Origin: Phycisphaerae bacterium
GTDB taxonomy: Bacteria; Planctomycetota; Phycisphaerae; Sedimentisphaerales; Sedimentisphaeraceae
Assembly: GCA_050251615.1 (NCBI GenBank)
Contig: JBFWMM010000001.1
Coordinates: 88,687 to 152,686, forward strand
Length of the DNA: 64,000 bases
Direction: 5' to 3'
Part shown: positions 31,047 through 52,500 of the stretch, piece by piece
Position numbering within the stretch: the stretch's first letter is position 1
Layout of the letters: each line of letters starts with the position of its first letter
Position numbers and translations under genes: made by a program
The notes under the pieces: model-generated
Databases searched by the model: none
Told to the model about the DNA's origin: nothing
Seen by the model: only the letters and a program-made list of their open reading frames with translations

Positions 31047-32349
31047 CTCTGCGGTCGTATCTGGCATTTCCTTCCGGAACAAGCGATATTGTGTCATCGT
31101 CGTCCGCCAGTAGTTTCTGTATGCCGACGGTCGCTCTCTCAACGGCGTCATCAAGCGCCAGTTGCAAGTTACAGTGTTCACAGTCTCTGTCGCAGTACCA
31201 CGGTTCATAACTGTCGGGTTCTTTGTACGTGGTAATTACGCCCTCATAGTTTCTCAGGATAACCTTGTTGGTTGACCAGGAGATGAGGTAATTGGGCATA
31301 ATGGGGATTTTGCCACCACCGCCGGGCGCATCAATGACGTACGTAGGCACGCAGAGGCCGCTTGTGTGGCCGATGAGGCTCTCCAGTATTTCGATTCCCT
31401 TACCGATTGGTGTGCGGAAATGCGAAAGACCTTCGGAGAGGTCGCACTGATAAAGGTAGTACGGGCGCACCCTGTTGGCCACGAGCTTATTCACGAGCGA
31501 GCGCATAATACGCGGGCAGTCGTTCACGCCTGCAAGCAGGACAGACTGATTGCCCAGCGGTACTCCCGCATCGGCAAGCCTCGCCAGCGCAAACCTCGAT
31601 GACGCTGTAATCTCGCGCGGATGGTTGAAGTGCGTGTTAATCCATATGGGGTGATGCTTCTTTATCATCTCGCAAAAATCTTCGGTAATCCTCTGCGGCA
31701 GAACGACCGGTGTTCTTGTGCCGATGCGTACCATTTCAACGTGCTCTATTTTGTCCAGCTCGGTGAGGATTTCATCGAGAAGCTCATCGGAGAGCAGAAG
31801 CGGGTCGCCGCCGGAAAGCAGCACGTCTCTGATCTGTGGCGTGTTGCGGATATAATCCAGTCCGGCGTTAAGGTCTTCACGCGAGGGTACTGAATCGACA
31901 TCACCCACTTTCCTCTTTCTCGTGCAGTGGCGGCAGTACATCGAGCAGACATTGCTCACGAGAAACAGCACACGGTCGGGGTATCTGTGCGTGATGCAGG
32001 GAGCGGGGGAGTCCTCGTCTTCGTGGAGCGGGTCGGCCATATCATTCTTCGATATGACCAGCTCCAGCGGAGAGGGAAATGCCTGTAAGAAAATCGGGTC
32101 GTATTTCAGGTTGTCTGTGTCAATCAGGGAGAGGTAGTAGGGAGTTATGGAAATAGGAAACTTCTTTACCGTACGGTTGAAATCCTCACGTGTTTCTTCG
32201 TCGAGCTTGATGTCGAGAAGTTCCTCGAAGGTTTCCAGGTCTTTTACCTGATGTTTCATCTGCCATTTCCAGTTGTTCCAGAGGCTGTGTACAGCTTTCG
32301 AATCTATGGCGTTTATGATATGTTTCTGTTGTGTTGTAAGTTTTCGCAT
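31036..32349 (-). CDS. ablA: Lysine 2,3-aminomutase (radical SAM), AblA/KamA type
   Basis: [42 protein letters not shown]; C-terminal CDRDCEHC extension. Confidence 0.9.
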
Positions 32350-32915
32350 TATAATTCCTCTGAGTTTATTTCATTTATTTTAACTCTTTCGCCAGACATC
32401 AAATTCGGCGATGAGTCGAGCTCGCAGGCTCCCATCATTGATACTGTCTGTTCGAGTGAAAGTGTGAGCGTGGCCTGCTCAAGCTCGGAGAGCTCTTCAA
32501 AAGCCTCGGAAAACTGCTCCTGGAGCAGCGTGGGCGCGGTCCTGGCAACTTCTTTGCCCGTTTCTGTAATCGTCAGTGCTATCTTTCTCCTGTCATGGCT
32601 GCTTTGGACGCGGTTGACCATTTTTCTTGCCACAAGCCTGTCAACGATACCGGTTGTAGTGCTCATCCCGAGCGAAATGTCTTCGGCGAGCTCTGAGAGT
32701 GTCTTGGGCTTGCCGTCCATTAACGAGTGCAGGCAGATGAGCTGCGGGGTGGTTATATTGTATTCTTTGTGCAGGCGGCGGGAGTGTATATCAACCGCTC
32801 TGATTATCTTTCTGAGCGATCGAAGTATCCGGACCTGATAATCCGTTGCCCTGTTTGAGCCTGCCTGTTTATATTTGTCCATTGTATTTGAGTCTATCTG
32901 TTTATGGTTATCCAT
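32349..32915 (-). CDS. MarR family regulator, EctR/CosR-like
   Basis: [53 protein letters not shown]; TAATG overlap with ablA. Confidence 0.8.
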
Positions 32916-33097: not shown

Positions 33098-34759
<1,662 letters not shown>

Positions 34760-34785
34760 CAGCCGCTTTAATATGTTTACGCATT

Positions 34786-34813
34786 GTAGAGACGCGAAAT
34801 TTCGCGTCTCTAC
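34786..34813. repeat. Perfect 28-bp REP-like palindrome
   Basis: GTAGAGACGCGAAATTTCGCGTCTCTAC; same family as the copies at 2558 and 2723. Confidence 0.85.
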
Positions 34814-34839
34814 TTCATCCTGCCTTTTAGGGATTGAAT

Positions 34840-35799
34840 ATGTTTTTAAAACCGCTGAAGATTGTTACACTTGCAGGTTTGCTTTGTGTTCATGCAGTTG
34901 CAGTTGTAAGGACAATCAAGATTGAAGTTGATGATAAAATGAGAAGCTATGAGCTTTATATGCAGGACAATCAGCATTCCGGCGAGCCTGTTGGCGTTGT
35001 AATAATGCTTCACGGCGGTGGCGGAAGGGCGACATCTGCGATGCGAGTAACCCGCTGGAACGAAAAAGCAGAAAAGGAAGGCTTTGCGGTTGTCTATCCA
35101 GAGGGTACAAGGCCCTCCCCTGAAAAGCCTGCCAGTTTTTCTCGCAACCCGCAAACCTGGAACGATGGCTCACGCAGACTGCATATCGGGGCGGTGAGAA
35201 AAAACATTGACGACATCGCTTTCCTCGCGGGGCTCATAGACAGCTTGCGGTCTCGGGATGATATAGACAGCTCAAGGATATACGTTACGGGCTTCTCCAA
35301 CGGCGCCTCAATGGCGTTCAGAGTGGCAAGAGAGCTTTCCGGTAGAATAGCGGCCGTTGCGCCGGTAGCGGGGGCGGACTGGCTTCAGGAGAAAATCCCC
35401 GCACGGAAAGTTCCCGTTATGTATATTACTGGAACGAATGACCCGCTGAATCCGATAAAGGGCGGTCCTGTCAAAATGGGGCAAAAGTATTACGGCGAAA
35501 AAGCTCCCGTCAAGCAAATTATAGACGCCTGGACTAAGTTGCACGGTTGCGCTGCGGAGCCCGTAATCGAGCATAGAGAAAACGCAACGTTATACAGCTA
35601 CTCACCCGAAGCCGCTGAAACCGCGGCGTTTGTTTACTGCGAAATCGAGGGGCACGGACATATCTGGCCGGGAGGCATATCGTTGCTACCGGGGAGCATG
35701 GGTGGCTCAAATACGTCAAAGATAGACGCAACCGACCTGATATGGGACTTCTTCAAAAAACATAAATTGCCGGAGCAAGCTGCTAAATCAGCCGATTGA
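34840..35799 (+). CDS. Secreted alpha/beta-hydrolase esterase (LpqC/PHB-depolymerase-like)
   Basis: Signal peptide, MLHGGGG, VYPEG, GFSNG nucleophile elbow, GTNDP and GHIWPGG. Confidence 0.8.
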   Translation: MFLKPLKIVTLAGLLCVHAVAVVRTIKIEVDDKMRSYELYMQDNQHSGEPVGVVIMLHGGGGRATSAMRVTRWNEKAEKEGFAVVYPEGTRPSPEKPASFSRNPQTWNDGSRRLHIGAVRKNIDDIAFLAGLIDSLRSRDDIDSSRIYVTGFSNGASMAFRVARELSGRIAAVAPVAGADWLQEKIPARKVPVMYITGTNDPLNPIKGGPVKMGQKYYGEKAPVKQIIDAWTKLHGCAAEPVIEHRENATLYSYSPEAAETAAFVYCEIEGHGHIWPGGISLLPGSMGGSNTSKIDATDLIWDFFKKHKLPEQAAKSAD

Positions 35800-35824
35800 G
35801 CTGAAGCCTGCAACATGGCGGCCA

Positions 35825-38800
35825 TTATTCCGCCAGCAGCTTTACGGGCCCGAGCAGACCGCCCGGCTCTTTTTTCCAGTCCGAGCCAACCCTGATATTG
35901 GTATTCGTAATGCGCTGCTCTGCGGGTTTGGCGCTGTCTGAAATCAATCTGTTGCGCCAGCTGTTTACCACTGTTACTTCAAGCTCATTATCACCGTTCT
36001 TGATTACTCCTGTCGCTTCTATCCTGAACGGCTTAATCCAGGTTATTCCAAGATCGCTGCCATTAAGTTTAACCGAAGCAATACCAACGTCCTGAACATT
36101 GGCAAGTTCAATCCAATATCGTTTGCCGGTTGTGATTTTCTCTGCGCTGAATGCTGTCCTGTACGTTGCGGGGCCGGAATAGTCGCAGATTGCGTTCTCT
36201 TTTATACTTCTCCAGTCTGCAAGCGCGTTAAAAACAACTTCTCCGCAGCCGCCGTACTCAGGCGGGAAGTTTACACTCCAGGGGCCCTTGATCGTCATCA
36301 CGCTTCGCTTCGCGGGGAAGTTCGGCTTGCCGTTGCCGCTAACGGATTCAGAAATCTCATCATCGAATACGACAATGAGCGAACCGTTCGGGCCGAATTC
36401 AAGCGGGAGAGTGGTTTTGCCGTCTTTCTGAGAAAATGTCGTTGCAGTTGATACTTCACCGGTAACGGGATTCCATATCTGTGGCTGCCGGCCGCTTACG
36501 CGGAATGTGCAGTTCGAGCGGATTGCATCGGTGCAGAACGAGGTTACAAAATACACGTCTTTGCCGTCTATATTGTAATGGATATAGTCGATGTTGGCGT
36601 TGGCGGGAAGGGTGCAGCTGAAATCGGGATCGATGCCTTGCGATTGGAGGTATTCATGCGTCGTCATGCCGCTGATAAGCTTGCCTTTGCCGGTTTCTTT
36701 CCTGTCCCACAGCGAGGCGGCTGTTTTCCTGAAGAACTCCTGAGCCTCCTTGCCGCCCGAGAGGCTCACCATCCGTTCGGGCTTTTCCCCGAGCACGGTA
36801 GCTCCGTCGTGCAGCAGCTCCGCAACCTTCTCCAGCGCTGCTTTTGAGAGTACTCTGTGCGCCGGCAAAGCGAGCAACTTGTAGCTTGTGCCACTGGGAG
36901 TTACGATATTGCCCGCCTGATCTACCGAGAGCTGCAATAAAACATCCTCGTTTGTTACATCATAATCGTAGCCCGGCAAAACTCCCGCCGGGTCTGACTC
37001 CTTCAGGCCGAATATGTTTGGGACATGGTCGCCGTAGTAGTAGAGCGCGTCCGCCTGGAATTTTCCCTGCTGCAAGACGTACTGCACGCGCGAAATGTAG
37101 TCCATAAACCCGTCGCAATAAGGCCACCATGTTACCTGCGGGTTGATGTGGGTGCCGGCGAAGTATTCCTGGCCGGGCAGCCCCATCTCTTTCGGCGAGC
37201 AGGTAAATGTATGGAAGAAGATGAGGTTGAGCCCCGAGCAGAATTCGTGGTTCATGCTCGGCAACTGTGATGCCCAGAGCACATCGTTCCAGTGCCGGCC
37301 GATTGTGGTAAAGGATTCCGCGCCCACAAGCTGTTTGCCGTAGATATGCGCGGCGGATGCCGCCTGCTTTACGAAGAATCTCTGCGGCGGCGTGGGGCGG
37401 TGCGGTGAGGGCGCCCAGAACTCGCTCATCATTATGCTGCTGTGGGAGTAGTTTTTGAGCCCGTCAAATGGTCCTGCGTGCGGGCCAGCGGATTCCGGCT
37501 GAATGCCGATGCCGTATTCATCTGCTCTTTCGGCGAAACGCCGGTAATGGTTTTCGCTGATGCAGTTTCCGATGGTCTTTCTGAAATCTGCCAGAAACGC
37601 GTTACTCGCCTCGCGGCTGTCCACAATCTTCCCTGCGATTACGGGCAGATACTGCTTGATGTCGTAGCCGCAGTAATCGAAGAATTCGCGCTCCATTTCG
37701 GGCGTCCAGTTCATTCCCCCGCATTCCCAGCTGTCGGTTTCGAGCTGCGTCAGGACGGTTCCCGCGAGCGGGCCTGCGAGCTCAAGCAGGGGGCTTACGT
37801 TTCTGTTCCAGTAGTCATCAAACGCCTCTACGCTGAGGTGATCGATTACTCGTCCCTGCCATTTGCCGCTTGATGTGGAGACGTGTGAGTTTGCAACTGT
37901 ATAGCCGAATCTGAGGATTGTCCAGCTGCCTTGCGGGGCGTTCCAGTCGAGCGAGCCATCCGGCTGCAATTTGTCGGATACGTCAATAATCTCTGAGCTG
38001 AAAACATCCTCCTCGCCTGCGGTTGCGGGCAGGTCGGTAAGGAGGAATGTCGTATCGGGTGCGCTCATGCCGATCTCGCTGAAAGCGCTTTTAAGAGCCA
38101 GATCTCTAATCGGCGCCACTACTCTGTTGCGTGCAACAATCTTTCGCCCGTTCTCATCGAGCATGGTCAACTCTGCTATTTGAACATTTCGCGGATTATC
38201 AGGGAATTTGGGGTCGTAAGATTCTGTAACCAGGATTGTGAGCTCTGCCGTTTCCTGCGGCGCGAAGAAAATTTCCGAGCCCGTCAGCTTGACTGAAATG
38301 TCAAAGGATGTGTCTTTGCACTTAATGCGGCAGCTCTTTGCTCCGTATCCCTGCCTGCCTTCGATTTTGATGCCGCTGATCGTTTTTTTGCCTGCAAACT
38401 CCAATTTGAGCCACTCGGGGTGTTGGGAAGTGGGCCCCTGCCCCTGCTCTGTGCCGCCGCTTACCCAGAATGTATCGGGGTTTCCGTCAAAAGCTGCATC
38501 GGCAGGGTAGCCGCGCTGGCTTGAGCTTGCGCTGAATTCAGCCGCGTTTTTATCGGTTTTGTTTTTGTATGCAAGTACGCAGATGTCTCTGTAAAAACCG
38601 TCTCTGGCGGGTGGTTCGGGAAGTGAAACTGACTGACGGGGAGTTGTCTGAACCTCTGACCACGTGAGAACTTTCGCCGCATATTTGCTTGTAACGCCGG
38701 GGCCGCCGAGATTCCAGCCGCTCATAATGGAGAGGCCAAGCTGCAAATCAAGCCTGTTCGCCTCGTGCAGGGCGTGGAGATAAAGCTCTCTCCAGGCGGG

Positions 38801-39070
38801 CGAGCCGAACATCGGCCCCTCGGGCACCTGCGCATTGCCGCGCTGCTCTGCGCCGCCGGCATCGAAAAGCATTGCGCCGCTGAAGCCTTTGTCTGCCATA
38901 GCTTCGAGGTCTTTTGTGATTGCTTCTTTTGTTACGTTGCCGTTGAGCCACCACCACCAGCATCTCGGGCCCGATTGCGAGGTTGGAGATGTGAAGTTGC
39001 CTGTAAGCAGTTCGCCACCGGATGAGGCAAGCAGAATTGTAAAACAAATTAAAACAGCCAGTCTTTTCAT
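35825..39070 (-). CDS. GH106-type alpha-L-rhamnosidase with an inserted F5/8-type C module
   Basis: PRCWWWWLNGNVT, DLEAMADKGF, TDSWE, KQAASAAHIYGK..GAESFT, CSGLN..FHTF; insert AAFDGNPDTFW. Confidence 0.8.
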   Translation of the reverse strand: MKRLAVLICFTILLASSGGELLTGNFTSPTSQSGPRCWWWWLNGNVTKEAITKDLEAMADKGFSGAMLFDAGGAEQRGNAQVPEGPMFGSPAWRELYLHALHEANRLDLQLGLSIMSGWNLGGPGVTSKYAAKVLTWSEVQTTPRQSVSLPEPPARDGFYRDICVLAYKNKTDKNAAEFSASSSQRGYPADAAFDGNPDTFWVSGGTEQGQGPTSQHPEWLKLEFAGKKTISGIKIEGRQGYGAKSCRIKCKDTSFDISVKLTGSEIFFAPQETAELTILVTESYDPKFPDNPRNVQIAELTMLDENGRKIVARNRVVAPIRDLALKSAFSEIGMSAPDTTFLLTDLPATAGEEDVFSSEIIDVSDKLQPDGSLDWNAPQGSWTILRFGYTVANSHVSTSSGKWQGRVIDHLSVEAFDDYWNRNVSPLLELAGPLAGTVLTQLETDSWECGGMNWTPEMEREFFDYCGYDIKQYLPVIAGKIVDSREASNAFLADFRKTIGNCISENHYRRFAERADEYGIGIQPESAGPHAGPFDGLKNYSHSSIMMSEFWAPSPHRPTPPQRFFVKQAASAAHIYGKQLVGAESFTTIGRHWNDVLWASQLPSMNHEFCSGLNLIFFHTFTCSPKEMGLPGQEYFAGTHINPQVTWWPYCDGFMDYISRVQYVLQQGKFQADALYYYGDHVPNIFGLKESDPAGVLPGYDYDVTNEDVLLQLSVDQAGNIVTPSGTSYKLLALPAHRVLSKAALEKVAELLHDGATVLGEKPERMVSLSGGKEAQEFFRKTAASLWDRKETGKGKLISGMTTHEYLQSQGIDPDFSCTLPANANIDYIHYNIDGKDVYFVTSFCTDAIRSNCTFRVSGRQPQIWNPVTGEVSTATTFSQKDGKTTLPLEFGPNGSLIVVFDDEISESVSGNGKPNFPAKRSVMTIKGPWSVNFPPEYGGCGEVVFNALADWRSIKENAICDYSGPATYRTAFSAEKITTGKRYWIELANVQDVGIASVKLNGSDLGITWIKPFRIEATGVIKNGDNELEVTVVNSWRNRLISDSAKPAEQRITNTNIRVGSDWKKEPGGLLGPVKLLAE

Positions 39071-39324: not shown

Positions 39325-40728
39325 TTAGAGCTCTATGCCGAAGTAGTTCTTTGCGTTGTTGAAAGAGATATTTTCGACCATATCGCCGAGGAGATCCATA
39401 TCGCGCGGGATAAGCCCGTTTTCTGCATCATTGCCGAGTATGTTGCAGAGGATTCGGCGGAAATACTCGTGCCTGGGATATGAGAGCAGGCTGCGTGAGT
39501 CTGTCAGCATGCCGACAAACCTGCTCAGTAGCCCGAGATTGCTCAGCGCTTCGATCTGCTTTTCCATGCCGTCTTTCTGGTCGAGGAACCACCATCCCGA
39601 GCCGTACTGCATCTTGCCGGCGATTGAACCGTCCTGGAAGTTGCCGATCATTGTGGCCATAAGCTCGTTGTCGCGGGGGTTCAGGTTGTACAGAATCGTC
39701 TTCGGGAGGCTGTCGCTCATGTCGAGGCGGTTGAGCATCTTCGAGAGCGATTCTGCTATCGGGTAATCTGCGATGGAGTCGAAGCCTGTATCGGGGCCGA
39801 GCGCGTTGAACATACGCGTGCTGTTGTTTCTAAGTGCGCCGATATGGAGCTGCATTGTCCAGCCTCGGGAGTGGTCGAGCAGGGCGGTTTCGTGCAGGAC
39901 GGCGGATTTAAACTTTTCTGCTTCATCCGTCGAAAGGGCCTGCTTTGCCCTTATCTTATCGAAAATCGCGCTCACTTCTTTATCAGTGTAGTCTGCGGCG
40001 TAGGGGCGGTCGAGACCTCTGTCCGAGATTCGGCATCCGATTTCGTGAAAGAACGCATGTCTGATGTCGAGCGCCCTTATATAGCTCTCGAAGCTGAATA
40101 CATCCATATCCGCAAGAGAAGCCAGCTTGTCAATCCATTGATTGAGCGCGTCAAGATTCTCTACCGCCATCGCCTTGTCGGGGCGCCAGGTTGGCAATAC
40201 TTTCACCTCAAAGCTGTCAGCGGCTATTTTTGCGTGATGTTCGAGCGAGTCTGTCGGGTCGTCAGTCGTGCAGACCGCCGCCACGTTCATCTTGCGCATA
40301 AACTCGCGCGCGCTGTAATGGTTGCGGATCTGCTCGTTGCAACGCTCGTAGATGCTCTTAGCTGTCTGTGGGCAGAGCAGTTCATCGATGCCGAACCAGC
40401 GTTTCAGCTCAAGATGTGTCCAGTGGTAGAGCGGGTTGCGAAGCGTATGGGGCACGGTCTGCGCCCATTTCTCGAACTTCTCCCAATCGCTTGCGTTGCC
40501 CGTGCAGAAGCGTTCGGGCGTGCCGTTGGTACGCATGGCGCGCCATTTGTAATGATCGCCGTAGAGCCAGGCCTGCGTGATATTCTCAAACTTCTCATCA
40601 TCTGCAATCTGCTTCGGGGGCAGGTGGCAGTGGTAGTCGAAGATGGGCATATCTGCTGCGCGATCGTGGTAAAGCCTGCGGGCTGTTTCCGTTTGAAGTA
40701 GAAAATTGTCCGATATGAAACTTGTCAT
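39325..40728 (-). CDS. uxaC: Uronate isomerase
   Basis: DYHCHL, GDHYKWRAMR, NPLYHWTHLEL, GSGWWFLD, GMLTDSRS.LSYPRHEYFRR. Confidence 0.97.
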   Translation of the reverse strand: MTSFISDNFLLQTETARRLYHDRAADMPIFDYHCHLPPKQIADDEKFENITQAWLYGDHYKWRAMRTNGTPERFCTGNASDWEKFEKWAQTVPHTLRNPLYHWTHLELKRWFGIDELLCPQTAKSIYERCNEQIRNHYSAREFMRKMNVAAVCTTDDPTDSLEHHAKIAADSFEVKVLPTWRPDKAMAVENLDALNQWIDKLASLADMDVFSFESYIRALDIRHAFFHEIGCRISDRGLDRPYAADYTDKEVSAIFDKIRAKQALSTDEAEKFKSAVLHETALLDHSRGWTMQLHIGALRNNSTRMFNALGPDTGFDSIADYPIAESLSKMLNRLDMSDSLPKTILYNLNPRDNELMATMIGNFQDGSIAGKMQYGSGWWFLDQKDGMEKQIEALSNLGLLSRFVGMLTDSRSLLSYPRHEYFRRILCNILGNDAENGLIPRDMDLLGDMVENISFNNAKNYFGIEL

Positions 40729-40746
40729 GGTAATCTTTCAAAAGGA

Positions 40747-40781
40747 AACGGGCCGATTGCCGCCTCTGCAGCCGGCCCGTT
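40747..40781 (-). terminator. Hairpin between gnd and uxaC (possible partial terminator)
   Basis: AACGGGCCG/CGGCCCGTT stem followed on the minus strand by TCCTTTT. Confidence 0.45.
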
Positions 40782-40788
40782 CGGTTAA

Positions 40789-42240
40789 TCATACAACGTA
40801 GGTTCTTGCTGCCGTCGTGCCGCCGTGTCCTGTCCAGTTGGTGTGGAAGAACTCGCCGCGGGGTGAATCGAGGCGCTCGTAGGTGTGCGCTCCGAAGTAA
40901 TCTCTTTGGGCCTGAAGCAGATTAGCGGGCAAGCGCTCCGCGCGGTAGCCGTCGAAATAGGCCAGCGCGCTGGATATGGCCGGCATCGGGATGCCCAGCT
41001 CAACCGCCGCCACGATAACGCGCCTCCAGGCTGCCTGTGCGTTTTCCACGGCATCCCTGAAGAACGGGTCGAGCAGGAGGTTTACAAGCTCGGGGTTGTT
41101 GTCGAAGGCTTCCTTGATCTTGCCCAGGAACGCCGAGCGGATGATACAGCCACCGCGCCACATCAGTGCGATGCTGCCGTTGTTGAGGTTCCAGTTGTAT
41201 TCCTTTGCCGTTGCGCGCATGAGCTGGTAGCCCTGTGCGTAAGAAACAATCTTGCTTGCGTACAGCGCCTGCTTGAGGTCTGCAACGAGAGCCGTCTTAT
41301 CGCCTTTATACTTCTTTTCGGGGCCGCTGAGAATCTTCGCCGCTTTAACGCGCTCGTCTTTGAGCGCCGAGAGGCAACGCGCGAAAACGGCCTCGGTAAC
41401 GAGCGTTAGCGGCTGGCCGCTGTCGAGCGCGGCTTCGGCCGTCCATTTGCCCGTGCCTTTCTGGCCGGCGGTGTCGAGAATCATATCAACAACAGCGTTT
41501 CCGTCTTCGTCGCGGTATTTGAGGATGTCGCGGGTGATTTCGATGAGGTACGAATCAAGCTCGCCTTCGTTCCATTCCTTGAACACTTCGTACATCTCTT
41601 CGTTGCTCATGCCGAGCCCCTGCTTCATCAGCTGGTATGTTTCGCAGATCATCTGCATATCGCCGTATTCGATGCCGTTGTGCACCATCTTCACGAAGTG
41701 CCCTGCGCCGTTCTCGCCTACCCACTCGCAACATGGTTCGCCGGAGCCGGTGTGTGCGGAAATCTTCTGGAATATAGGCTTCACGGTTTCCCAGGCGGCA
41801 GGCGAACCGCCGGGCATAATCGACGGGCCGAGAAGCGCGCCTTCTTCGCCGCCTGAAACGCCCGTGCCGATGAAGAGCTTGCCTTTGCTCTCAACGTATT
41901 CTGTGCGGCGAATTGTGTCGGGGAAGTGGCTGTTGCCGCCGTCGATGATGATGTCGCCGTCGTCGAGGAGTGGGAGAAGTTGCTCGATGACCATATCAAC
42001 GGGCTTTCCCGCCTTGACCATTATCATCACCTTGCGCGGGCTTGTCAGGCTTGCAACCAGCTCTTCCGGGCTGTGGCAGCCGATGATGTTCTTGCCGCTC
42101 GCACGGCCTTTGATGAATTTATCCACAACGCTTGTCGTGCGATTGTAACAGGCTACTGTGAAGCCCTTGCTTTCCATATTGAGGATGAGGTTTTCCCCCA
42201 TCACTGCCAAACCGATTACTGCAATATCTGCTTGTGCCAT
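40789..42240 (-). CDS. gnd: 6-phosphogluconate dehydrogenase (decarboxylating, NADP)
   Basis: [45 protein letters not shown] and AQRDYFGAH motifs. Confidence 0.97.
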
Positions 42241-42289
42241 TTGTTATTTTGCTCCGTATTATAAGGGTTTTAAGATTGTGTCTATCCGG

Positions 42290-43363
42290 TTATCGTTTTA
42301 CTCTGGCATTTCCTGCCCAGATGCTCCAAAGCTGGTCTTCATCGGCGGGCTGAGCGTAATCAGTGAGCATTGTCGCGGCCAGTGCACCGCTTGCCCAGCC
42401 GAATCTTGCGCATTTCTGCACGTCCCAGCCTTTAAGTATGCCGTAAAGCAGGCCGCCGACGAATCCATCGCCGCCGCCGATGCGGTCAAGAACGCCAATC
42501 TCGCGTGGCATTATAACTTCCCAATCTTTTGAGTCTGTTACGACGGCGCCCCACATATGCAGGTTCGCCGAGATGACCTCACGCAGCGTTGTGGCGAAGT
42601 ATGTTGCGTTGGGAAAGGCCTTCTGAACGCGGCCGATCATCTCTTTGAAGCCGTCTATCTTCTCCTCAAGACCTTTTCCTCCCGATTCGGGGCCTTCAAT
42701 GCCGAGGCAGAGCTGGAAGTCCTCTTCGTTGCCGATGAGGATGTCGCTCAGGGACGCTATTTCAGCGAAAGCCGCGGAGAGTTCTTTTTCTCTACCTTTC
42801 CAGAAGCTTGCTCTGTGGTTGAGGTCAAAGGAAATGCGCGAGCCGTTCGCTTTGGCTATCCTTGCTATGTCGAGGCAGAACTGGCTTGTCTTGGGTGAAA
42901 GCGCGGCGATAAGGCCCGAAAGGTGAACGATTTCAACGCCTTCCTGCGCGAAAATCCTGTCCAGGTCGAAATGCTCGCTTGAAAGCTCCCGCCCGACTTC
43001 CCCCGCTCTGTCGTTCTGCACCCTCGGCCCTCTTGATCCCCAGCCGCTGTCGGCCATGTTTATCTGGTGGCGGTAGCCCCAGGGGCCGGCTTGGTCGAAT
43101 TCAGGCGCTTCAAAATCCATCCTGCGGCTCTTGATGTTGTCCTTGATGAAATGCGAAACGGGGCTCCCCTTTACGAAAGCCGTCAGCACCTTGACCGGCA
43201 GCCCCAGATATGAGGCAACGCTTGCAACATTGCTTTCGGCGCTTGTCGCCTGCATCTTGAATGTGTCGCTACAATGAAAGGGCTGGGAGCCCGCGGGAGT
43301 GAGCCGCAGCCCCATGCTCGTGGGGATGAGAAGGGCGTATTTCTTTTGTGAAGTTGAAGCCAT
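42290..43363 (-). CDS. PfkB-family sugar-acid kinase (KdgK-like)
   Basis: ISFDLNHRASFW, GNEEDF, C-terminal DRIGGGDGF anion hole. Start at ATG 43363 (AAGGA RBS). Confidence 0.8.
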   Translation of the reverse strand: MASTSQKKYALLIPTSMGLRLTPAGSQPFHCSDTFKMQATSAESNVASVASYLGLPVKVLTAFVKGSPVSHFIKDNIKSRRMDFEAPEFDQAGPWGYRHQINMADSGWGSRGPRVQNDRAGEVGRELSSEHFDLDRIFAQEGVEIVHLSGLIAALSPKTSQFCLDIARIAKANGSRISFDLNHRASFWKGREKELSAAFAEIASLSDILIGNEEDFQLCLGIEGPESGGKGLEEKIDGFKEMIGRVQKAFPNATYFATTLREVISANLHMWGAVVTDSKDWEVIMPREIGVLDRIGGGDGFVGGLLYGILKGWDVQKCARFGWASGALAATMLTDYAQPADEDQLWSIWAGNARVKR

Positions 43364-43379
43364 ATTGTGTTTCCTTAAT

Positions 43380-44651
43380 TTATTTTTCAAATCTGTTGCG
43401 CCAAGCCCAGAGCCCGAGCGCGGGGTTTGAGATGTAGAAAATCTCTTCGCCGCCAACGCGGTTATAGCCGTCTTTGAGCTTCTCGGGGTCGTAGAGCTTT
43501 GTCATTTCTTCGAGGTCTGCGAAGGCGAAGTTTACCGATTCAACTTCTTCGCGCGTGAGGCCGCCGGTGCAGTAGGTAATTTTGAACCTGCCCTCGCTTG
43601 AGCCGTGGATCAGGTGCGCCGCGGCGCTGAGGTTGCCGGCGAGCTCGGGCTCACTCTCAATGAGCTTAAGCACCTTCTCTGAGCCTACGTACCCGTACTT
43701 TCTTATAAGCCGGTCGATTTCTTTGTCTTCCCCGAACTCCTTCACACCCGGAGCAAGCACAATCAGCTCGCCGTCATCGGCCATTGCCATACGCGTGCGA
43801 TAGATGCTCTTATTGCCCAGCCACGTGCTTTTGAACTCATCGGGCTCAAGGTAAACAACGCATTTCTTCAGCGGCTCATCGAGCATTTGAAAATTGACTT
43901 CAAGCGAAAGCGCCGCGGCGAGCTCGTAGCATTCAATATCATCGCCGATAAACATCCCGCGAACAACCTGCCCGTTATCGGTGCCCTCGATGACAGTCTG
44001 TACATAGAGGATTGGTGGCAATGAGTCCATGAAGTTGTCGCTGGCGTAGTTGAGCACCTTTCTCACGGGGCTGTCGGCGCGGCCCATAATCCGTTCCATG
44101 CCGTACGCGGCGCCGAGGAAGTGGCTCTTGTTGATGCCTTCGGAGCCGCCGGTGCCGACGAAGATGTTTTTGTTGTAGTTGGCCATGCCTATCACTTCGT
44201 GCGGCACAACCTGCCCGACCGAGAGTATGAGGTCGAATCCGCCGCCCGAGAGCAGGCTGTTGACCTGCGCGGGCCAGTCAAAGCTGACCTTCCCTCCGCT
44301 CACTTCGCTGACATATTCACCCGGAACGATGCCGAGAGTTTTCAGGTCGCTGCGCCAGTTGTGTACGCGAAACAGCTCGTGCGGCATCCTGCCGAACATT
44401 CTGCTGATCTCGCTGTTGGTCATAGGGGCGTGGGTGCCGAGCGCCGGCAGGACGTCTGTGAGCCTGTCGCCGAGAATCTCCCATGCGTATTCTGTGAGCA
44501 GGCCCGCGCGGCTGTGAAAACGCGTCGCGTCCGGCGGTATTGCCAGCACCTTCCTGCAATCTGTAAAATGTTCCAGAGCCTCTGCCAGGCCGGATCTTAA
44601 ATCGGCCGCTGAGAGCGAGTCGTCCCTGGAACCTCTTTTGTAGTACAACAT
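43380..44651 (-). CDS. LarA (lactate racemase) superfamily / DUF2088 2-hydroxyacid epimerase
   Basis: PPDATR, ALGTH, VPHE, NYNKN and INKSH align by eye with the LarA D/R, H, H, K and H active-site positions. Confidence 0.8.
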   Translation of the reverse strand: MLYYKRGSRDDSLSAADLRSGLAEALEHFTDCRKVLAIPPDATRFHSRAGLLTEYAWEILGDRLTDVLPALGTHAPMTNSEISRMFGRMPHELFRVHNWRSDLKTLGIVPGEYVSEVSGGKVSFDWPAQVNSLLSGGGFDLILSVGQVVPHEVIGMANYNKNIFVGTGGSEGINKSHFLGAAYGMERIMGRADSPVRKVLNYASDNFMDSLPPILYVQTVIEGTDNGQVVRGMFIGDDIECYELAAALSLEVNFQMLDEPLKKCVVYLEPDEFKSTWLGNKSIYRTRMAMADDGELIVLAPGVKEFGEDKEIDRLIRKYGYVGSEKVLKLIESEPELAGNLSAAAHLIHGSSEGRFKITYCTGGLTREEVESVNFAFADLEEMTKLYDPEKLKDGYNRVGGEEIFYISNPALGLWAWRNRFEK

Positions 44652-44867
44652 TGATACACCTTTCTGTTACCCTTTATCCGCCTCGCTTTGGGAGGCCGGA
44701 TAATCTATATGATACAGATATTAAATCAGAATGCGATATAAACTTGGCTCTCAACGCAATTTTTTGACGTAAAATAGCGCTCGGAGCCTTCACCTTGTGT
44801 GAGAACCGGCGTATTGTGGTTTTGTTTTTCAGCTTACGACAACGCAGTTGCAACGGAACGGCAAAAA

Positions 44868-45104
44868 CACGAAAAGCACGAAAGCGAAGCAATTTAAAAT
44901 TTCATGTTTAAGATTTAAAAATCTCCGTACCTCCGTGAACTCCGTATCAAACATATAAACCTATCGGCAGTAATGAGTTAGTGCAGGAAAGGCGCGTTGC
45001 GGTGGGCTTTGTTTACTTAGTATTATTTGTGGTTTCGTCCGATTGGCAGGGCGCTTGTGCACCTCCGCTCTATAATCTTCGTGTGCTTCGCGCGCTTAGT
45101 GGTT
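44868..45104. repeat. Short-period degenerate repeats in the intergenic region
   Basis: CACGAAAAG-CACGAAAG (44868); CTCCGT x3 (44923, 44931, 44940); CTTCG/CTTAG x3 with 9-bp period (from ~45077). Confidence 0.5.
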
Positions 45105-45141
45105 AATCAATACAAACTCCGCTTGTGTGGCTAAAGTGTCG

Positions 45142-45327
45142 TCAGTCGTCAAGTATCTCATCTTCCGGTCTGGCGATTACCTTGTAATCTTCTTCCAACC
45201 AGCCGTTCAGGTCGGCAAGTTTGCAACGTTCGCTGCAAAATGGGAAAAACTTGTTTTTAGATGGCAGCTCAATTGCGGTGGCACATTTGCGGCATTTATA
45301 CATCGTATTGTTTGATTTTTCGGTCAT
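45142..45327 (-). CDS. yacG: DNA gyrase inhibitor YacG
   Basis: CRKC...FPFCSERCKLADLNGWL zinc finger. Confidence 0.9.
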   Translation of the reverse strand: MTEKSNNTMYKCRKCATAIELPSKNKFFPFCSERCKLADLNGWLEEDYKVIARPEDEILDD

Positions 45328-45393: not shown

Positions 45394-45810
45394 ATGTTCC
45401 CTGATAAAATTTACAAGCCCAAAATCGAGATCGAGATCGTGCCTCGCTACAACGAGACCGATCAGGGAGGTATCGTGCATCACTGCACATACCCTGTTTA
45501 CTTTGAAATCGCTCGTACCGAGCTGCTTCGTGCCAACGGCATGGCGTACGCAGAGCTTGAAAAAAACGGTTGCCGCATGGTTGTCGCCGAGCTGAATGTG
45601 AAATATCGCTCGCCTGCGTTCTACGATGAGAAGCTGACGATGGAAGTGGAGTGTACAAAGGTAACTCGCGCGAGAATCGAACACAGCTACCGCCTGTATC
45701 GTGCCGAGACGAATCAGACCGTCTGCGAGGGCAACACAATCCTTGCCTGCATAGACGAAGCGGGGCGGCCGAGACAGGTGCCTGCGTTTTTACACGTGGA
45801 CGAGCAATGA
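45394..45810 (+). CDS. Acyl-CoA thioesterase (YbgC/4HBT hotdog family)
   Basis: RYNETDQGGIVHH..Y..YFEIARTE; YRSPAFYDE. Confidence 0.85.
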   Translation: MFPDKIYKPKIEIEIVPRYNETDQGGIVHHCTYPVYFEIARTELLRANGMAYAELEKNGCRMVVAELNVKYRSPAFYDEKLTMEVECTKVTRARIEHSYRLYRAETNQTVCEGNTILACIDEAGRPRQVPAFLHVDEQ

Positions 45811-47356: not shown

Positions 47357-47515
47357 AGCTAAGTATTCCTCAGGGCACATACATCCAAAATTAGACAGCG
47401 AGAGAGCTGGAATTATTTGTCAAATCAGCCAAATTACTTACACTTGAACAAACCGGTTTGAGTATAGCCCGAGCCGGACGGTTAGATATTGTCAGTAATT
47501 AGAGAAAGGATGATT

Positions 47516-49291
47516 ATGCTCAGAAGAATTATGTTTGCGCTGCTGCCGGCTGTGGTTGCCGCGGCCGCTCCGAACCTCGCCTACCGCACCAATGCGCCAA
47601 CACCCCCTATGGGCTGGAACAGCTGGGATATTTTCGGTACGACAGTTACCGAAGAGCAGATAATGCAACAGGCCGATGCTATGGCCGAAAAACTGTTGCC
47701 GAACGGCTGGCAATACCTCACAGTCGATATTCAGTGGTATGAGCCGAACGCTAAGGGCCATGTTTACCAGGAGGGTGCGCCGCTCCAGATGGATGAGTAC
47801 AGCAGGCTCACTCCCGCGCTTACGAAATTCCCCTCCGCCGCAGAGGGAGCGGGCTTCAAGCCGCTCGCAGACTACGTACACTCAAAGGGGCTCAAGTTCG
47901 GTATCCATATCATGCGCGGCATCTCAAGGCAGGCAGTAAAGCAGAATATGCCCATTATCGGCACAGCAGCGAAGGCCGCAGATATTGCCCTGACAAACCA
48001 CACCTGCCCGTGGAATCCCGATATGTACGGCGTGGATATGAGCAGGCAGGGTGCGCAGGAATACTACGATTCCATCTTTGCGCTGTACGCATCGTGGGGC
48101 GTGGATTTTGTGAAAGTGGACGATATCTCCCGCCCCTATGATGATGTTCAGAAGGCCGAGATCGAAGCTATACGCAAGGCAATAGACAAAACAGGGCGAC
48201 CGATTGTGCTGAGCCTCTCTCCCGGTGATACGCCGATTGAGCGTGGCAGCCACGTTATGAACTATGCGAATATGTGGCGTATCTCGGACGACTTCTGGGA
48301 CCGCTGGCTACCTTTGCGCAATATGTTCGGCAGGCTCGAAAAATGGTCGCAGTACCGCGCGCAGGGCGCATGGCCGGATGCGGATATGCTGCCGTTCGGC
48401 TTCGTGGAATTCGGCCGCCCCACACGCTTCACGAAAAATGAACAGCGGCTTTGCATGAGCCTCTGGTGTATCGCACGCTCACCGCTTATCTTCGGCGGCG
48501 ATATGACGCGTCTCGACGAGTTTACCGTGAATCTGCTTGCCAACAGCGAGGTGCTTGCGGTCAATCAGGCCAGTGAGAACAACCGCCAGATTTCGCGTGA
48601 TAACAACCTGATTGTCTGGGCGGCGGACGTGTTAGGCAGCAGTGATAAGTATGTGGCGCTGTTCAACGCGCAGAGCGAGAATGAGGATGCCGATTTCTTC
48701 AGCTGTACCTATAAAAGCCCGCTTCTGGATGCCGGCAGAAATACTGTGGGCATTGCAGTTTCCATCAAGGGCAAGAGCCGGCTGACGCTTGCCGTGAGCA
48801 ACGCCGATGACAACTTCAGCTGGGATCACGCCGTATGGGTGAACCCCTTGCTTACAGGCGCTAAAGGCACTCTGAGTCTGACAGATCTCAAATGGACCTC
48901 TGCAACCGCCGGCTGGGGCAGGCCCATGGTAAACAGAACTTGCGAAGACAAGCCGCTTGAGGTGGGTGGGAAGAGCGTTGAGGGAATCGGTACACACGCC
49001 GAATCCACTATCGTTTACGATATTCCCGAGGGCTACGACACCTTCAGCGCAATCGGCGCTCTCACTACAAATCAAGGCTCCATCAGGTTTGGTGTGCTTG
49101 CGGAGAATGTTAGCGCGGAGAAGCCGGAATCAAGTGAAGTGTCGGTTGCTTTTTCCGAGCTTGGCCTTGGCGACAAAGTAAAGGTGAGAGACCTCTGGGA
49201 GAAGAAAGACGTTGGTGTCTTTGAGGGAGAGTTCGGCGTTGCTTTGAAATATCATCAGGCCGGTCTATACCGCCTTAGCCCACAGCAGTAG
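47516..49291 (+). CDS. Secreted GH27 alpha-galactosidase with an inserted NPCBM-like module
   Basis: TPPMGWNSW, VDIQW, GLKFGIH, WGVDFVKVD and MWRISDD; NPCBM-like GWG..GIGTHA. Start 47510 or 47516. Confidence 0.88.
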   Translation: MLRRIMFALLPAVVAAAAPNLAYRTNAPTPPMGWNSWDIFGTTVTEEQIMQQADAMAEKLLPNGWQYLTVDIQWYEPNAKGHVYQEGAPLQMDEYSRLTPALTKFPSAAEGAGFKPLADYVHSKGLKFGIHIMRGISRQAVKQNMPIIGTAAKAADIALTNHTCPWNPDMYGVDMSRQGAQEYYDSIFALYASWGVDFVKVDDISRPYDDVQKAEIEAIRKAIDKTGRPIVLSLSPGDTPIERGSHVMNYANMWRISDDFWDRWLPLRNMFGRLEKWSQYRAQGAWPDADMLPFGFVEFGRPTRFTKNEQRLCMSLWCIARSPLIFGGDMTRLDEFTVNLLANSEVLAVNQASENNRQISRDNNLIVWAADVLGSSDKYVALFNAQSENEDADFFSCTYKSPLLDAGRNTVGIAVSIKGKSRLTLAVSNADDNFSWDHAVWVNPLLTGAKGTLSLTDLKWTSATAGWGRPMVNRTCEDKPLEVGGKSVEGIGTHAESTIVYDIPEGYDTFSAIGALTTNQGSIRFGVLAENVSAEKPESSEVSVAFSELGLGDKVKVRDLWEKKDVGVFEGEFGVALKYHQAGLYRLSPQQ

Positions 49292-49328
49292 GAAGCATAA
49301 AAACATCTTACAAAATCCGTTGATTTGT

Positions 49329-49366
49329 AAAACAGGGCAGGTTGTCGTAACCTGCCCTGTTTTTTT
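49329..49366 (+). terminator. Intrinsic terminator after GH27
   Basis: AAAACAGGGCAGGTT-loop-AACCTGCCCTGTTTTTTT. Confidence 0.85.
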
Positions 49367-49545
49367 GTATGGGTTCTCCGGCAGCTTTTGCGCAGAGTTT
49401 GTCAGCGACCTGTTACGACTGACAGAAACTGCACACACTATTAACGAAATACTGTTTTTTTTATCGCATTCGCCTTACAGTGATACATATCATTTTGCTT
49501 ATGACAGCAACTCTAAAACTCAATTACTTAACTGGAAGGAAAAAA

Positions 49546-52500
49546 ATGAAAAAGAAACTGTTTACATCCGCACTGGCACTTTTACTTTCGGTGAATGCTT
49601 GGACGTTCGCAAGCTCGCCGGGACAATCGTTCAAAATTGCTGTACTGCCCGACACGCAGCACTATTCACGTAACTACCCCGAGACATTCGCCGCCCAGAC
49701 ACAATGGGTCGCCGACAATAAAGAGGCCGAGAACATTGCATTTCTCACGCAACTCGGCGATATTGTTAATAACGGCGGTAGCGATCCGAACCAGTGGGTA
49801 AACGCTGATGCCGCTATCGACATTCTCGATGGCGTCCTGCCTTACTCGGTTACTCTCGGCAACCATGACTTACACACGCCTCACGAAAGATATGATGGCG
49901 CCGCGGAATATCTCTATTTCTTCGGCCCGCAACGTTACGAGAATTACAACTGGTACGGCGGCAGCGACAGAAAGGGCTGGTGTCATTATCAGATATTTAC
50001 GGCAGGCGAAAAAGAATGGCTTCACCTCAACCTCCCCGTCTTTCCTGATGATGAAGAGTTGAAGTGGGCGCAGGACGTTCTTGATGAGTATCCCACAATG
50101 CCGGCCATCTATTCAACCCACGCCTATCTCTCCGATATGGAAGACCCCAACGAACCTTTCCTTCCCCTCTATTCAGGCTTGAGCTACAATCAAGTCGGCT
50201 GCAATTCGGGGCTGGGGCAGTGGCAGAAGTTCGTTGCCAACAACGACCAGATCTTTCTCGTGCTCAATGGCCATCACTCCGGAGATGAAACCGAAATGAC
50301 CGGCGATGACGGTGAAGCGGTTCTCGTTTCTCAAAATGTTTACGGCAAGGACGTTGTTCAGCTCTGCCAGGACTATCAGGCACTTGATAACGGCGGCAAC
50401 GGCTATATGCGTCTGATCGAGCTTGACCTTGTTAATGGCAAGATTAACGTGAAGACATATTCTCCCACTCTCAACGCGTACATGACAGACGAAAGCAGCG
50501 AGTTCAGCATTGACCTCGATTTTGCGGCACGTTTCGAGAGCGTTATGTCGCGCGAAAGTACAACTATCCCGACGGTTCAGGCGGCCAACATTACGGTTGA
50601 GCAGTACAGCCCTGATAATGAGCCCACAGATATACTTGCGTTCATTCCCTACGAACAGAGCACGCCTCTTTTCTTCATGAACGACCCGAACGCAACCGAG
50701 GGCGGAAGCAACCGTGGCGACATTGCGATAAAGGTCGGTGAGAACCCTTATGATGATGCCATCAACGGCATTTATATTGCCACAATTGCCGAAAATGAGC
50801 GTATGAACGCCGACCACTATGAGCATTCCGGCTATTCGCACGTCAGCTCGCCCGCGATCGGCTACGGCAGCGGTAACAATTGGATCGCCACTTTCACGAC
50901 ATCTCGCATGTATATGGACAGCACCGTATTGTATGCTGGCGGCCACGAAGAAAACGTAAATGTTTCTGCCGCATACTTCCCCTTTGAACAGGGTTGGATC
51001 GGTGCTCATGGATCAAACTGGACCAATAATCTTGCGCTTTCAATGGTTATCAGTGGCGGTCAGATCACTCTCCACGATGAGCTCAAAGACATTATGTACG
51101 ACAGCGTTATAATACCGCGATTTTATGCCGGATCCGCGGATTTCCCCGAGCAGGATGGCATCTGGAAACTTACGCTTGACGGCATAAACAGCATCCGCGA
51201 TGGCGTTTTGCTGGCCTGTGGCGGAAAGAACGAAGACAACTACTCAGCAGCTGCTCCGACATCCGACGGCGAGGGTTGGTCAATCTTTACCAAGGATAAC
51301 GGCGCTAACGGCCTCTCAACCGGAGAAGAAGACCCGTTCAATATAGTTTACATTCCTTATGAGACCCCGGGTATCGCTGCGGGCGTTGTATCGGGCAGAG
51401 GCGGCATCAGAAACGGTACCGAAAACTTCCGTGTTTACCACGAGGCAAACGGCACCTACCGCCTGACTATTGAAGGCCACAGCCCCGAAACAGGCGCACT
51501 GCTTCTTACACAGGGTACAGGCACTTACGCGGCTGATAACACTATGACTTATGAGCCGGATGGCGAGGCGTGGATTATTCAGACGCGCGACCTGCCCAAT
51601 GGCGGCCTGCAGAGCAATAAATATAAGGATGTCGGCTTCGTGTTCGCGTTCATCCCGTTTGCTGACGCTCCCGCGGCGCCGGGCCCGAACAGGATATTCA
51701 ATGAGTCTGAAATCTCTGCCGGCGACTTTGTTGTAACCTCCAATGCAAGTACTGAGGTTGGGGAAATCCATAGAATTGCCGGACGTAACTACCTCACAGC
51801 CGACCACAGCGACAGAGGTGATTTCGGTATGGCGCGCTGCGGTTTCCAGATGCCGATTGAAGAGGGCATTATGATGGTAACTGCTCGTGAGGCTTTCCGT
51901 ACAGATGAAGGATCCACCTTTATGGCCACATTCTCCGCTGACCGCACATGTATGTATGGCGGTGCCGGGCTTACTCTGCATAAGGCACAGACGGATGCCG
52001 CGGAATGTAACGCCAATTTTGCGGCGGTATGGCTGCCCTTCAACGGCGGATATGCCGGCGGTCATATCAACATTGACGATGCCGTTGAGGCATCAGACGG
52101 CCCCGCGGTGACTGTAACTGCGGGTTCCCTTGCCGGCGACCACGAAATCAAACTTGCAGGCGTTACTCCCGAGCAGGGCGCATTGTTTGTAACTATTCAG
52201 TGTAACGACGACAAAACTGCCTGCATCAGCAGAAATGCTGACAATACCGGCTGGAGGCTTGTAACCCGAGACAACGCCCAGGTGTTCGGATTTGAAGACG
52301 ATGAGTTCGGCTACCTCTACCTGCCTTACGGAAGCAAAGAATTTATTGTCGCGCAGGTTAACGCAGCAGGTACAACGGAAAAGGCAAACGGTGAGTTCAC
52401 TGTTTCAAAGACCTCAACGGGCTCGTACCGCGTAACAATCCCAGGCGCAACACCTGCAACCGGTATGCTTCTGCTGAACAGCTGCGACACAAACAGCTTT

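Follow-up and report, generated by a model that had tools for sequence, protein, structure and literature searches.

How does a marine-sediment planctomycete carry uronic acids into central metabolism when its uronate isomerase gene is grouped with genes for a LarA homologue, a sugar kinase and a 6-phosphogluconate dehydrogenase? This question is raised by four closely spaced co-directional genes, encoding a LarA homologue, a PfkB kinase, Gnd and UxaC, on the minus strand at 39325-44651 of a 64-kb stretch of Phycisphaerae DNA (assembly GCA_050251615.1, contig JBFWMM010000001.1, positions 88,687 to 152,686; hereafter the window). The planctomycete host is borne out by the GroEL encoded in the window, whose identity to the Sedimentisphaera salicampi protein (Sedimentisphaeraceae) amounts to 87%. 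The four genes form an operon-like cluster that most likely channels uronic acids towards the pentose-phosphate pathway, and the explanation that we favor overall, with confidence somewhat above even, is that larAH18-pfkB-gnd-uxaC encodes the lower half of a route by which hexuronates enter that pathway.

In the proposed route, UxaC would convert glucuronate to fructuronate (or galacturonate to tagaturonate, in which case UxaE would also be needed), and an SDR-type (short-chain dehydrogenase/reductase) fructuronate reductase, encoded elsewhere in the genome, would yield D-mannonate. The LarA homologue, with nickel-pincer nucleotide (NPN) as its cofactor, would then turn the manno- into the gluco-configuration through transient hydride abstraction at C2, followed by phosphorylation at C6 by the PfkB kinase and oxidative decarboxylation of 6-phosphogluconate to ribulose-5-phosphate by Gnd. 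The favored order would thus run from free mannonate through gluconate to 6-phosphogluconate. Because the NAD(P)H consumed in the reductase step would be regained at Gnd, the route would be redox-neutral and suited to a fermenter.

The four gene identities proposed in the initial annotation were each recovered with Pfam and NCBIfam models, as follows.

43380-44651, minus strand: LarA homologue of LarAH group 18, 423 aa, putative NPN-dependent hexonate C2-epimerase (NF052594 and Pfam Lar_N)
42290-43363, minus strand: PfkB-family sugar-acid kinase, here called type A, 357 aa, proposed hexonate 6-kinase acting on gluconate or mannonate (Pfam PfkB)
40789-42240, minus strand: gnd, NADP-dependent decarboxylating 6-phosphogluconate dehydrogenase (TIGR00873 and Pfam 6PGD/NAD_binding_2)
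39325-40728, minus strand: uxaC, glucuronate/galacturonate (uronate) isomerase (Pfam UxaC and NF002794)

Gnd scored 776 bits on TIGR00873 (cutoff 426.7) and showed the two-domain architecture of the family (Pfam 6PGD, 456 bits; NAD_binding_2, 169 bits), while UxaC scored 643 bits on NF002794 (cutoff 387) and covered positions 1-464 of 464 of Pfam UxaC (PF02614) at 678 bits. The kinase open reading frame (ORF), listed as 42290-43456, begins at an upstream TTG; its true start is the ATG at 43363, since homologue lengths and the Joint Genome Institute (JGI) gene call agree on this codon and an AAGGAA ribosome-binding site lies 8 nt upstream of it. The intergenic gaps of the cluster measure only 16, 49 and 60 nt. 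A terminator scan, whose total count was no higher than that of shuffled sequences, placed no minus-strand terminator-like site in these gaps, and the sole minus-strand match, at 43292-43280, lies within the kinase gene.

A LarA homologue with an intact cofactor site

The LarA homologue matched NCBIfam NF052594 (NPN_18_hexonate, 'nickel-dependent putative hexonate epimerase', LarAH group 18) with 647.8 bits against a cutoff of 500, spanning model positions 2-410 of 411 and hence the full length of the family, and Pfam Lar_N (DUF2088, PF09861) with 32.3 bits against a cutoff of 23.3. The only solved structure that it matched was 4NAR, Thermotoga maritima GntE2 (E = 4e-35, 28% identity), in keeping with the T. 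maritima gluconate epimerase that had been named before as a precedent. GntE2 was shown by Desguin 2020 to be an NPN-dependent D-gluconate 2-epimerase (PMC7583248).

The earlier claim that the protein retains the residues for the NPN cofactor was substantiated at seven positions, with D41, R44, H74, H151, K161, H177 and K281 aligning with GntE2 D38, R41, H73, H154, K164, H180 and K287. Through the GntE2 equivalences given in PMC7583248, H151, K281, R44, K161 and H177 correspond to LarA H174, K298, R75, K184 and H200, whereas D41 and H74 were matched to LarA D72 and H108 by the present alignment alone. By these equivalences R44, K161 and H177 bind NPN, and D41, H74, H151 and K281 are catalytic. 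Six of the seven residues are invariant in all 75 aligned full-length members of the family and D41 is kept in 74 of the 75. Also invariant in the 75 sequences are the triplet H151-E152-V153 and W277, with N280-K281 and N340 invariant or nearly so; a Glu-Val/Ser pair after the catalytic His and a Trp in helix alpha-11 form the published signature of groups 18-20 (PMC7583248).

The window protein is thus one more member of LarAH group 18, without any essential difference from it. GntE2, a LarAH20 protein, shares the catalytic and NPN-binding residues, the Glu after the catalytic His and the alpha-11 Trp, yet belongs to a different group. On the group-18 model it scores 192 bits, under the cutoff but still its best score among NCBIfam families, which makes the window epimerase a sister of the assayed GntEs and not an orthologue. 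Close similarity to an assayed GntE (LarAH19, LarAH20 or LarAH15) was likewise not found, identity to GntE2 being as low as stated above. We consider the protein a putative D-mannonate/D-gluconate C2-epimerase, or one acting on the 6-phosphates of these acids.

Association of the cluster genes across phyla

The epimerase family holds more than 8000 database proteins at E < 1e-20. In 80 retrieved loci, ORFs were called and grouped into clusters, and the recurrent ones were annotated; context shares were then computed over the 43 loci flanked by 5 kb or more on either side, which cover at least five phyla, counting neighbors within 7 kb of the epimerase gene. An SDR D-mannonate oxidoreductase (NF006132, 385 bits) was present in 91% of these loci, gnd in 84%, a PfkB kinase in 70% (type A in 56%, a second class, type B, in 14%), uxaC and a LacI regulator each in 56%, and the tagaturonate epimerase UxaE in 49%. 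Genes of the textbook branch through 2-keto-3-deoxygluconate (KDG) were less frequent, with canonical KdgK in 21%, Eda in 14% and UxuA in 7% of loci. Tripartite ATP-independent periplasmic (TRAP) transporters and major facilitator superfamily (MFS) transporters were each present in 21% of loci. The hexuronate-to-Gnd context proposed for the cluster therefore recurs at family level, linking the epimerase with SDR fructuronate reductase, UxaE, UxaC and Gnd. Of the fructuronate reductase, hexonate kinase and gnd that make up a GntE-type locus, the window itself holds the kinase and gnd without the reductase.

Gene order differs between lineages, being UxuB-LAR-KIN-GND-UxaC in Phycisphaerae, UxuB-KIN-LAR-GND in Bacteroidota and KIN-GND-LAR-UxaC in Kiritimatiellota (LAR, epimerase; KIN, kinase), which implies that the association is selected and not merely inherited. 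Chance adjacency of gnd was rejected on the same basis, its co-occurrence with the epimerase extending across phyla with rearranged order, and the clustering as a whole goes far beyond chance, with these partners around the epimerase gene in dozens of genomes. Identity between phyla is high, at 65-76% for the epimerase (spanning Planctomycetota, Bacteroidota, Ignavibacteriota, Acidobacteriota and Verrucomicrobiota), 62-90% for the kinase and 73-84% for Gnd, the latter against four loci compared directly. The window's own GroEL reaches only 87% identity to its counterpart in the closest genus with a name; against this background, the similarity of the cassette suggests horizontal spread or very strong constraint.

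With a reductase that makes mannonate and a Gnd that consumes 6-phosphogluconate, two steps are left to be accounted for, inversion at C2 and phosphorylation at C6, and the LarA homologue and the kinase would be the obvious candidates for them. The cross-phylum context strongly supports a passage from mannonate to 6-phosphogluconate and on to ribulose-5-phosphate, and at this level of the module, leaving aside the order of its steps, we hold it probable that these genes carry it out. A different sugar acid as the substrate of the epimerase (L-gulonate/L-idonate, D-altronate/D-allonate or an aldarate), with gnd adjacency reflecting general sugar-acid metabolism, is by comparison very improbable. 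It would suit a group that is named merely as 'putative hexonate epimerase', the distance from the assayed GntE2 and the suspicion of Desguin et al. that the native substrate of group 19 is not mannonate (PMC7583248), but the main neighbors make or use mannonate and 6-phosphogluconate (SDR mannonate oxidoreductase; UxaE, from tagaturonate to fructuronate; Gnd), and no altronate, idonate or glucarate family appeared among the annotated recurrent neighbor clusters.

Several further genes recur within these cassettes. A PdxB-like 4-phosphoerythronate dehydrogenase (NF001309, 452 bits against a cutoff of 434) lies between the epimerase gene and gnd in 14 of the 43 full loci, including the Bacteroidota/Ignavibacteriota loci L003, L008, L009, L012 and L014. 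It may be a housekeeping pdxB or a functional partner; enzymes of this kind oxidize a phosphorylated 2-hydroxyacid at C2, chemically near the epimerase half-reaction. Between the SDR reductase and LarAH18 genes of Pirellulales-type and some Sedimentisphaeraceae loci (L005, L017, L018, L019, L101, L111, L126) stand a 421-aa homologue of PfkA-family phosphofructokinase and/or a 301-aa HAD-like protein, and in some of these loci the PfkB kinase is replaced. A second LarA-like match, 44% identical, lies between the kinase gene and gnd in one Pirellulales locus (L125), and two gnd-like matches flank the epimerase gene in L099; these extra copies may be paralogue duplications within the cassette.

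The PfkB kinase and the order of the steps

The kinase matched Pfam PfkB with 65.9 bits and only PfkB models, neither TIGR01313 nor FGGY models, which rules out a classical gluconokinase of the GntK/IdnK P-loop or FGGY type. Of the earlier proposal that a kinase takes gluconate to 6-phosphogluconate, the presence of a kinase gene stands; the enzyme is a KdgK-like PfkB protein and not of the gntK type, however, and we infer its step rather than read it from homology. This raises the alternative that the protein is the lineage's KDG kinase, working in a UxuA-KdgK-Eda route mixed with an epimerase/Gnd side branch for which a gluconokinase would be encoded elsewhere. The best PDB match is indeed T. 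maritima KdgK (2AFB, E = 1e-31), homologues bear the public names 'sugar kinase' or '2-dehydro-3-deoxygluconokinase', the kinase gene directly follows uxuA in five Bacteroidota loci, and a PfkB kinase is missing altogether from some LarAH18-gnd loci (e.g., L002, L007, L048). We nevertheless regard this alternative as improbable. The kinase falls far below the cutoffs of all NCBIfam KdgK models (92.9 against 440 bits for NF041332, 39.5 against 400 for NF040938 and 32.4 against 400 for NF052444), and on the kinase half of NF041633, an Eda-KdgK fusion, type A reached 160 bits, compared with 258-265 for the LAR-linked type B and 511 for Eda-adjacent kinases. Linkage to Eda or UxuA, by which a KDG kinase might be recognized, was not found, as neither gene is in the window.

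Comparison with the PfkB KdgKs of T. maritima (TM0067, 2AFB) and T. thermophilus (1V19) points the same way. The kinase shares with these enzymes the PfkB fold and the GxGD motif (GGGD at residue 296), and an open-chain C6 sugar acid is a likely substrate, as it is for them; identity, by contrast, is about 30% or less, and genomic linkage is to LarAH18 and gnd instead of Eda. In T. thermophilus KdgK we take Tyr103, Arg105, Ile134 and Arg167 to be KDG-site residues, the two Arg binding the carboxylate; these roles reportedly go back to work by Ohshima in 2004. At the position of Tyr103, Asn117 of the window kinase is Asn in 38 of 38 type A sequences, as opposed to Tyr in 21 of 21 KdgK-like ones, and the second conserved KdgK tyrosine is Asn102 in type A and likewise invariant. 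Ile134 is replaced by Leu151, again in all 38, whereas Arg119 and Arg184, which align with Arg105 and Arg167, are kept in all kinase classes. The type A residues His99 and Gln100 stand where hydrophobic or Gly residues occur in KdgK. This pattern would describe a pocket that still binds an acid yet is more polar, into which a 2,3-dihydroxy acid would fit better than a 2-keto-3-deoxy acid.

The two kinase classes also occur side by side. In ~10 Bacteroidota/Ignavibacteriota loci a KdgK-like kinase lies beside Eda and type A beside the epimerase gene and gnd, and the same arrangement is seen on a Sedimentisphaerales chromosome (L089), where the type A kinase is 90% identical to that of the window, and on a Kiritimatiellales contig (L100), bringing the total to about a dozen loci in three or four phyla. 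The Eda-adjacent kinase is the other paralogue in these loci, which speaks against a KDG kinase role for type A. A common function of types A and B was rejected, type B keeping the Tyr and Ile signature of KdgK, and we treat it as KdgK-like. Type A is a distinct and very conserved PfkB subfamily apart from KdgK, with 75-90% identity from phylum to phylum, and is probably mis-annotated as KdgK. The same loci bear on another part of the initial annotation, which had read the cluster as acting instead of KDG, that is, as a bypass of the Entner-Doudoroff branch. The cluster does lack uxuA, uxaA and eda, as had been noted, and none of them occurs anywhere in the window, nor does kdgK, but in the close relatives L089 and L100 the locus also carries a KdgK-like kinase and Eda; with both branches in the loci of relatives, a replacement of the KDG branch cannot be claimed from a 64-kb fragment.

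Whether epimerization precedes phosphorylation is a separate matter, for which the initial annotation gave a single order although the sequence found in Lactobacillus suebicus is equally good mechanistically (Valk 2020, PMC6978723). Extracts of that organism converted mannonate only with ATP and interconverted 6-phosphomannonate and 6-phosphogluconate, the genes being left unidentified (PMC6978723), and no later paper naming them was found in the literature searched. Transferred to the present cluster, this order would make the PfkB protein a mannonate 6-kinase and the LarA homologue a 6-phosphomannonate 2-epimerase. Such a reading accommodates a kinase that belongs to neither gluconokinase family, the order UxuB-KIN-LAR-GND of Bacteroidota, which matches the reaction order, and the pairing of the UxuB-type SDR gene with the type A kinase gene in Pirellulaceae without a nearby epimerase gene. 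Gene order is weak evidence of reaction order, however, and the related GntE2 and GntE1 act on free mannonate.

Evidence on this point comes from three acidobacterial loci with the operon LAR-UxaE-GntK-UxuB. Their LarAH18 proteins are 64-68% identical to that of the window, score 659 bits on NF052594 and have the same invariant active site, while the kinase is of the GntK/IdnK type (TIGR01313, 159 bits; 40% identical to Escherichia coli GntK). The E. coli enzyme reportedly does not accept mannonate, according to work cited in PMC6978723, which implies that the product of the acidobacterial epimerase is free gluconate and argues against phosphorylation first. The Thermotoga operon, too, carries its own gntK (PMC3750489). 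With the kinase slot filled by different families, type A may be argued to be a hexonate kinase and free gluconate the epimerase product. Because the acidobacterial LarAH18, with its invariant active site, shares an operon with a GntK-type gluconokinase, we favor epimerase before kinase, with a confidence that is at best slightly better than even, and consider the opposite order unlikely.

Several observations weigh against the favored explanation, in which gluconate is formed first and then phosphorylated by the PfkB kinase. The nearest characterized relatives of this kinase are KDG kinases, and neither a published assay of any group-18 enzyme or type A kinase nor a characterized PfkB gluconate or mannonate kinase was found in the literature searched. 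The assayed GntEs have a high Km for free mannonate (9-120 mM; PMC7583248, PMC11770544), which leaves room for another physiological substrate and suits the L. suebicus order. A reciprocal search speaks in its favor: all kinase homologues of at least 79% identity with enough flanking sequence adjoined an NF052594-positive LarAH18, usually together with gnd. Orthologues of 74-77% identity, in contrast, pair with an SDR mannonate oxidoreductase (NF006132, 337 bits) or stand alone (L139-L166, from Rhodopirellula, Rubripirellula, Stieleria, Roseibacillus, Akkermansiaceae and Lentisphaeria), and no LarAH18 or gnd was found within 8 kb of these orthologues in Pirellulaceae, Roseibacillus and others. 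Two scans, for which a Pirellulales LarAH18 and a Phycisphaeraceae variant served as seeds, showed no LarAH18 from Pirellulaceae or Roseibacillus among the best 80 loci each. The kinase of these organisms may thus work without the epimerase. The Pirellulaceae orthologues, at 75% identity, also count in favor of the KDG kinase alternative, and the lone SDR-kinase pairs are unexplained by a gluconate kinase unless its partners lie elsewhere in those genomes. Finally, none of larB, larC and larE turned up in the 74 kb covered (the window and 10 kb to its left), and the reductase assumed by the initial annotation is missing from the same DNA although its gene is adjacent in 91% of related loci. 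For the route to operate, the reductase and larBCE would have to be encoded elsewhere in the genome. The only direct lar link found is a LarE homologue (E = 1.5e-44 to 5UDQ) 9 kb from the epimerase gene in one acidobacterial locus (L056).

Related routes and the surroundings of the operon

The closest known counterpart of the module is the T. maritima hexuronate operon gnd-uxaRED-gntEK (PMC3750489), whose GntE2 epimerizes mannonate in vitro (PMC7583248) and whose route was proposed in 2012 (Rodionova 2012, as cited in PMC6978723). Both comprise a uronate isomerase, UxaE, an SDR fructuronate reductase, a LarA-family C2 epimerase, a kinase and Gnd. Unlike the T. maritima locus, the window operon has neither uxaE nor the reductase gene, and its PfkB kinase belongs to another family than the Thermotoga gntK product, which is presumably of the FGGY type. 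For group 18 itself, Table S1 of Desguin 2020 lists as neighbors SDR (36%), 6-phosphogluconate dehydrogenase (32%), a ribokinase-family kinase (16%) and glucuronate isomerase (12%), as well as KduI, and a hexonate epimerase was hypothesized (PMC7583248). The novelty claimed for a nickel-dependent route in a planctomycete was therefore overstated, the context and the prediction being in that paper and the NCBI family being named accordingly. Relative to that table, our survey gives a denser context (91% SDR, 84% gnd) and splits the linked kinase from KdgK. The L. suebicus pathway is alike in its start from mannonate (isomerase pathway), in its end from 6-phosphogluconate through Gnd to ribulose-5-phosphate and in its redox-neutral rationale for anaerobes; it differs from the favored route in placing the kinase before the epimerase, and hence in the phosphorylated substrate (PMC6978723).

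Support for the pathway reading is good as far as the gene family is concerned, and we regard the module as a widespread relative of the Thermotoga route, putative in its biochemistry. It is a useful annotation and not a new kind of system, since the route was proposed in 2012, the epimerase activity of sister groups was shown in 2020 and the group-18 context is in Table S1 of Desguin 2020. For the window alone the gain is an improved annotation. What the comparison adds is a quantitative cross-phylum picture of the module, a dedicated PfkB subfamily separated from KdgK by a residue signature, evidence for non-orthologous kinase families at the kinase step and a link to two orphan activities of L. 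suebicus, mannonate kinase and 6-phosphomannonate epimerase, for which the cluster is a concrete candidate. That LarAH18 and its PfkB partner are in fact the missing L. suebicus genes is doubtful. If they were, LarAH18 would be the first known case of a nickel-pincer enzyme with a phosphorylated sugar acid as its substrate, and thousands of 'KdgK' labels in Planctomycetota, Kiritimatiellota, Verrucomicrobiota and Bacteroidota would be wrong. If the favored route holds, a large share of polysaccharide-degrading Planctomycetota, Bacteroidota, Ignavibacteriota, Acidobacteriota and other bacteria of the Planctomycetes-Verrucomicrobia-Chlamydiae (PVC) group would be able to direct carbon from glucuronate and galacturonate into the pentose-phosphate pathway. 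A nickel-cofactor epimerase route would then stand as an alternative to, or beside, the textbook route through KDG and its 6-phosphate, and metabolic models would change to include redox-neutral conversion to ribulose-5-phosphate, a CO2 yield from the loss of C1 and a nickel need for uronate fermentation in sediments and guts.

Two features border the four genes.

35825-39070, minus strand: GH106 alpha-L-rhamnosidase (Pfam Glyco_hydro_106, 530 bits, and F5_F8_type_C), 254 nt downstream of uxaC
44652-45134: 483-nt presumed promoter region between the epimerase gene and yacG

The GH106 gene is possibly the last of the transcription unit, and its product is a likely source of uronate-containing glycan fragments; the same uxaC-GH106 arrangement occurs in two contigs from two samples (L081, L082). 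Within the 483-nt region we found no inverted repeat or operator-like element and no riboswitch or Rfam match, and merely weak sigma-70-like matches, in a promoter scan that performed no better than on shuffled sequences. Upstream of the operon lie yacG (45135-45320, minus strand, 61 aa) and the plus-strand genes for a 4HBT thioesterase (45394-45810) and ribosomal protein L27 (45933-46178). These three genes fill the slot that uxaE, the SDR reductase gene and a ROK regulator gene occupy in the closest relatives, from which it follows that this genome has either lost the upstream half of the cassette or relocated it. In the 483-nt region, their place in relatives, nothing remains of the SDR reductase, UxaE or the ROK regulator.

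Beyond the operon, the window holds no homologue of uxuA, uxaA, eda, kduI, uxaE or the SDR mannonate oxidoreductase, and tblastn with homologues from related loci, in which positive controls worked, picked up neither copies nor decayed remains of the SDR reductase, UxaE, Eda, UxuA or KduI. In the further 10 kb of the contig, a JGI metagenome scaffold of 170.7 kb, beyond the left end of the window, no gene with a Pfam family of this set was called and no lar or uxu genes are present. The ROK or LacI regulator found ahead of the epimerase gene in relatives is likewise absent from the window and from these 10 kb. At the right end, the contig retrieved was a different and shorter one that contributes nothing of relevance. 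To the left, phosphofructokinase, dnaA and a gene of the 3-deoxy-D-arabino-heptulosonate 7-phosphate (DAHP) synthase family are among the genes found.

The operon is set in a glycan-degradation neighborhood (33122-39070 and 47489-59227) that, besides the GH106 rhamnosidase, encodes a polyhydroxybutyrate-depolymerase-like esterase, an alpha-galactosidase with an NPCBM domain, two large metallophosphoesterases, a GDPD, a NAGPA phosphodiester glycosidase and a GDSL esterase, with pgi (33122-34759) as another neighbor. Further along, at 28042-32915 on the minus strand, a MarR regulator, a lysine 2,3-aminomutase (LAM_C and radical SAM), a fused substrate-binding/permease component of an ATP-binding cassette (ABC) transporter, an ABC ATPase and a GNAT acetyltransferase make up what looks like a locus for the compatible solute N-epsilon-acetyl-beta-lysine, which would fit a halophilic relative of Sedimentisphaera. 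The dnaA gene lies just outside the window, ~6 kb beyond its position 1 (L085, 3101-4411), and the cumulative GC skew climbs almost monotonically over the window; the region may therefore be close to a replication origin.

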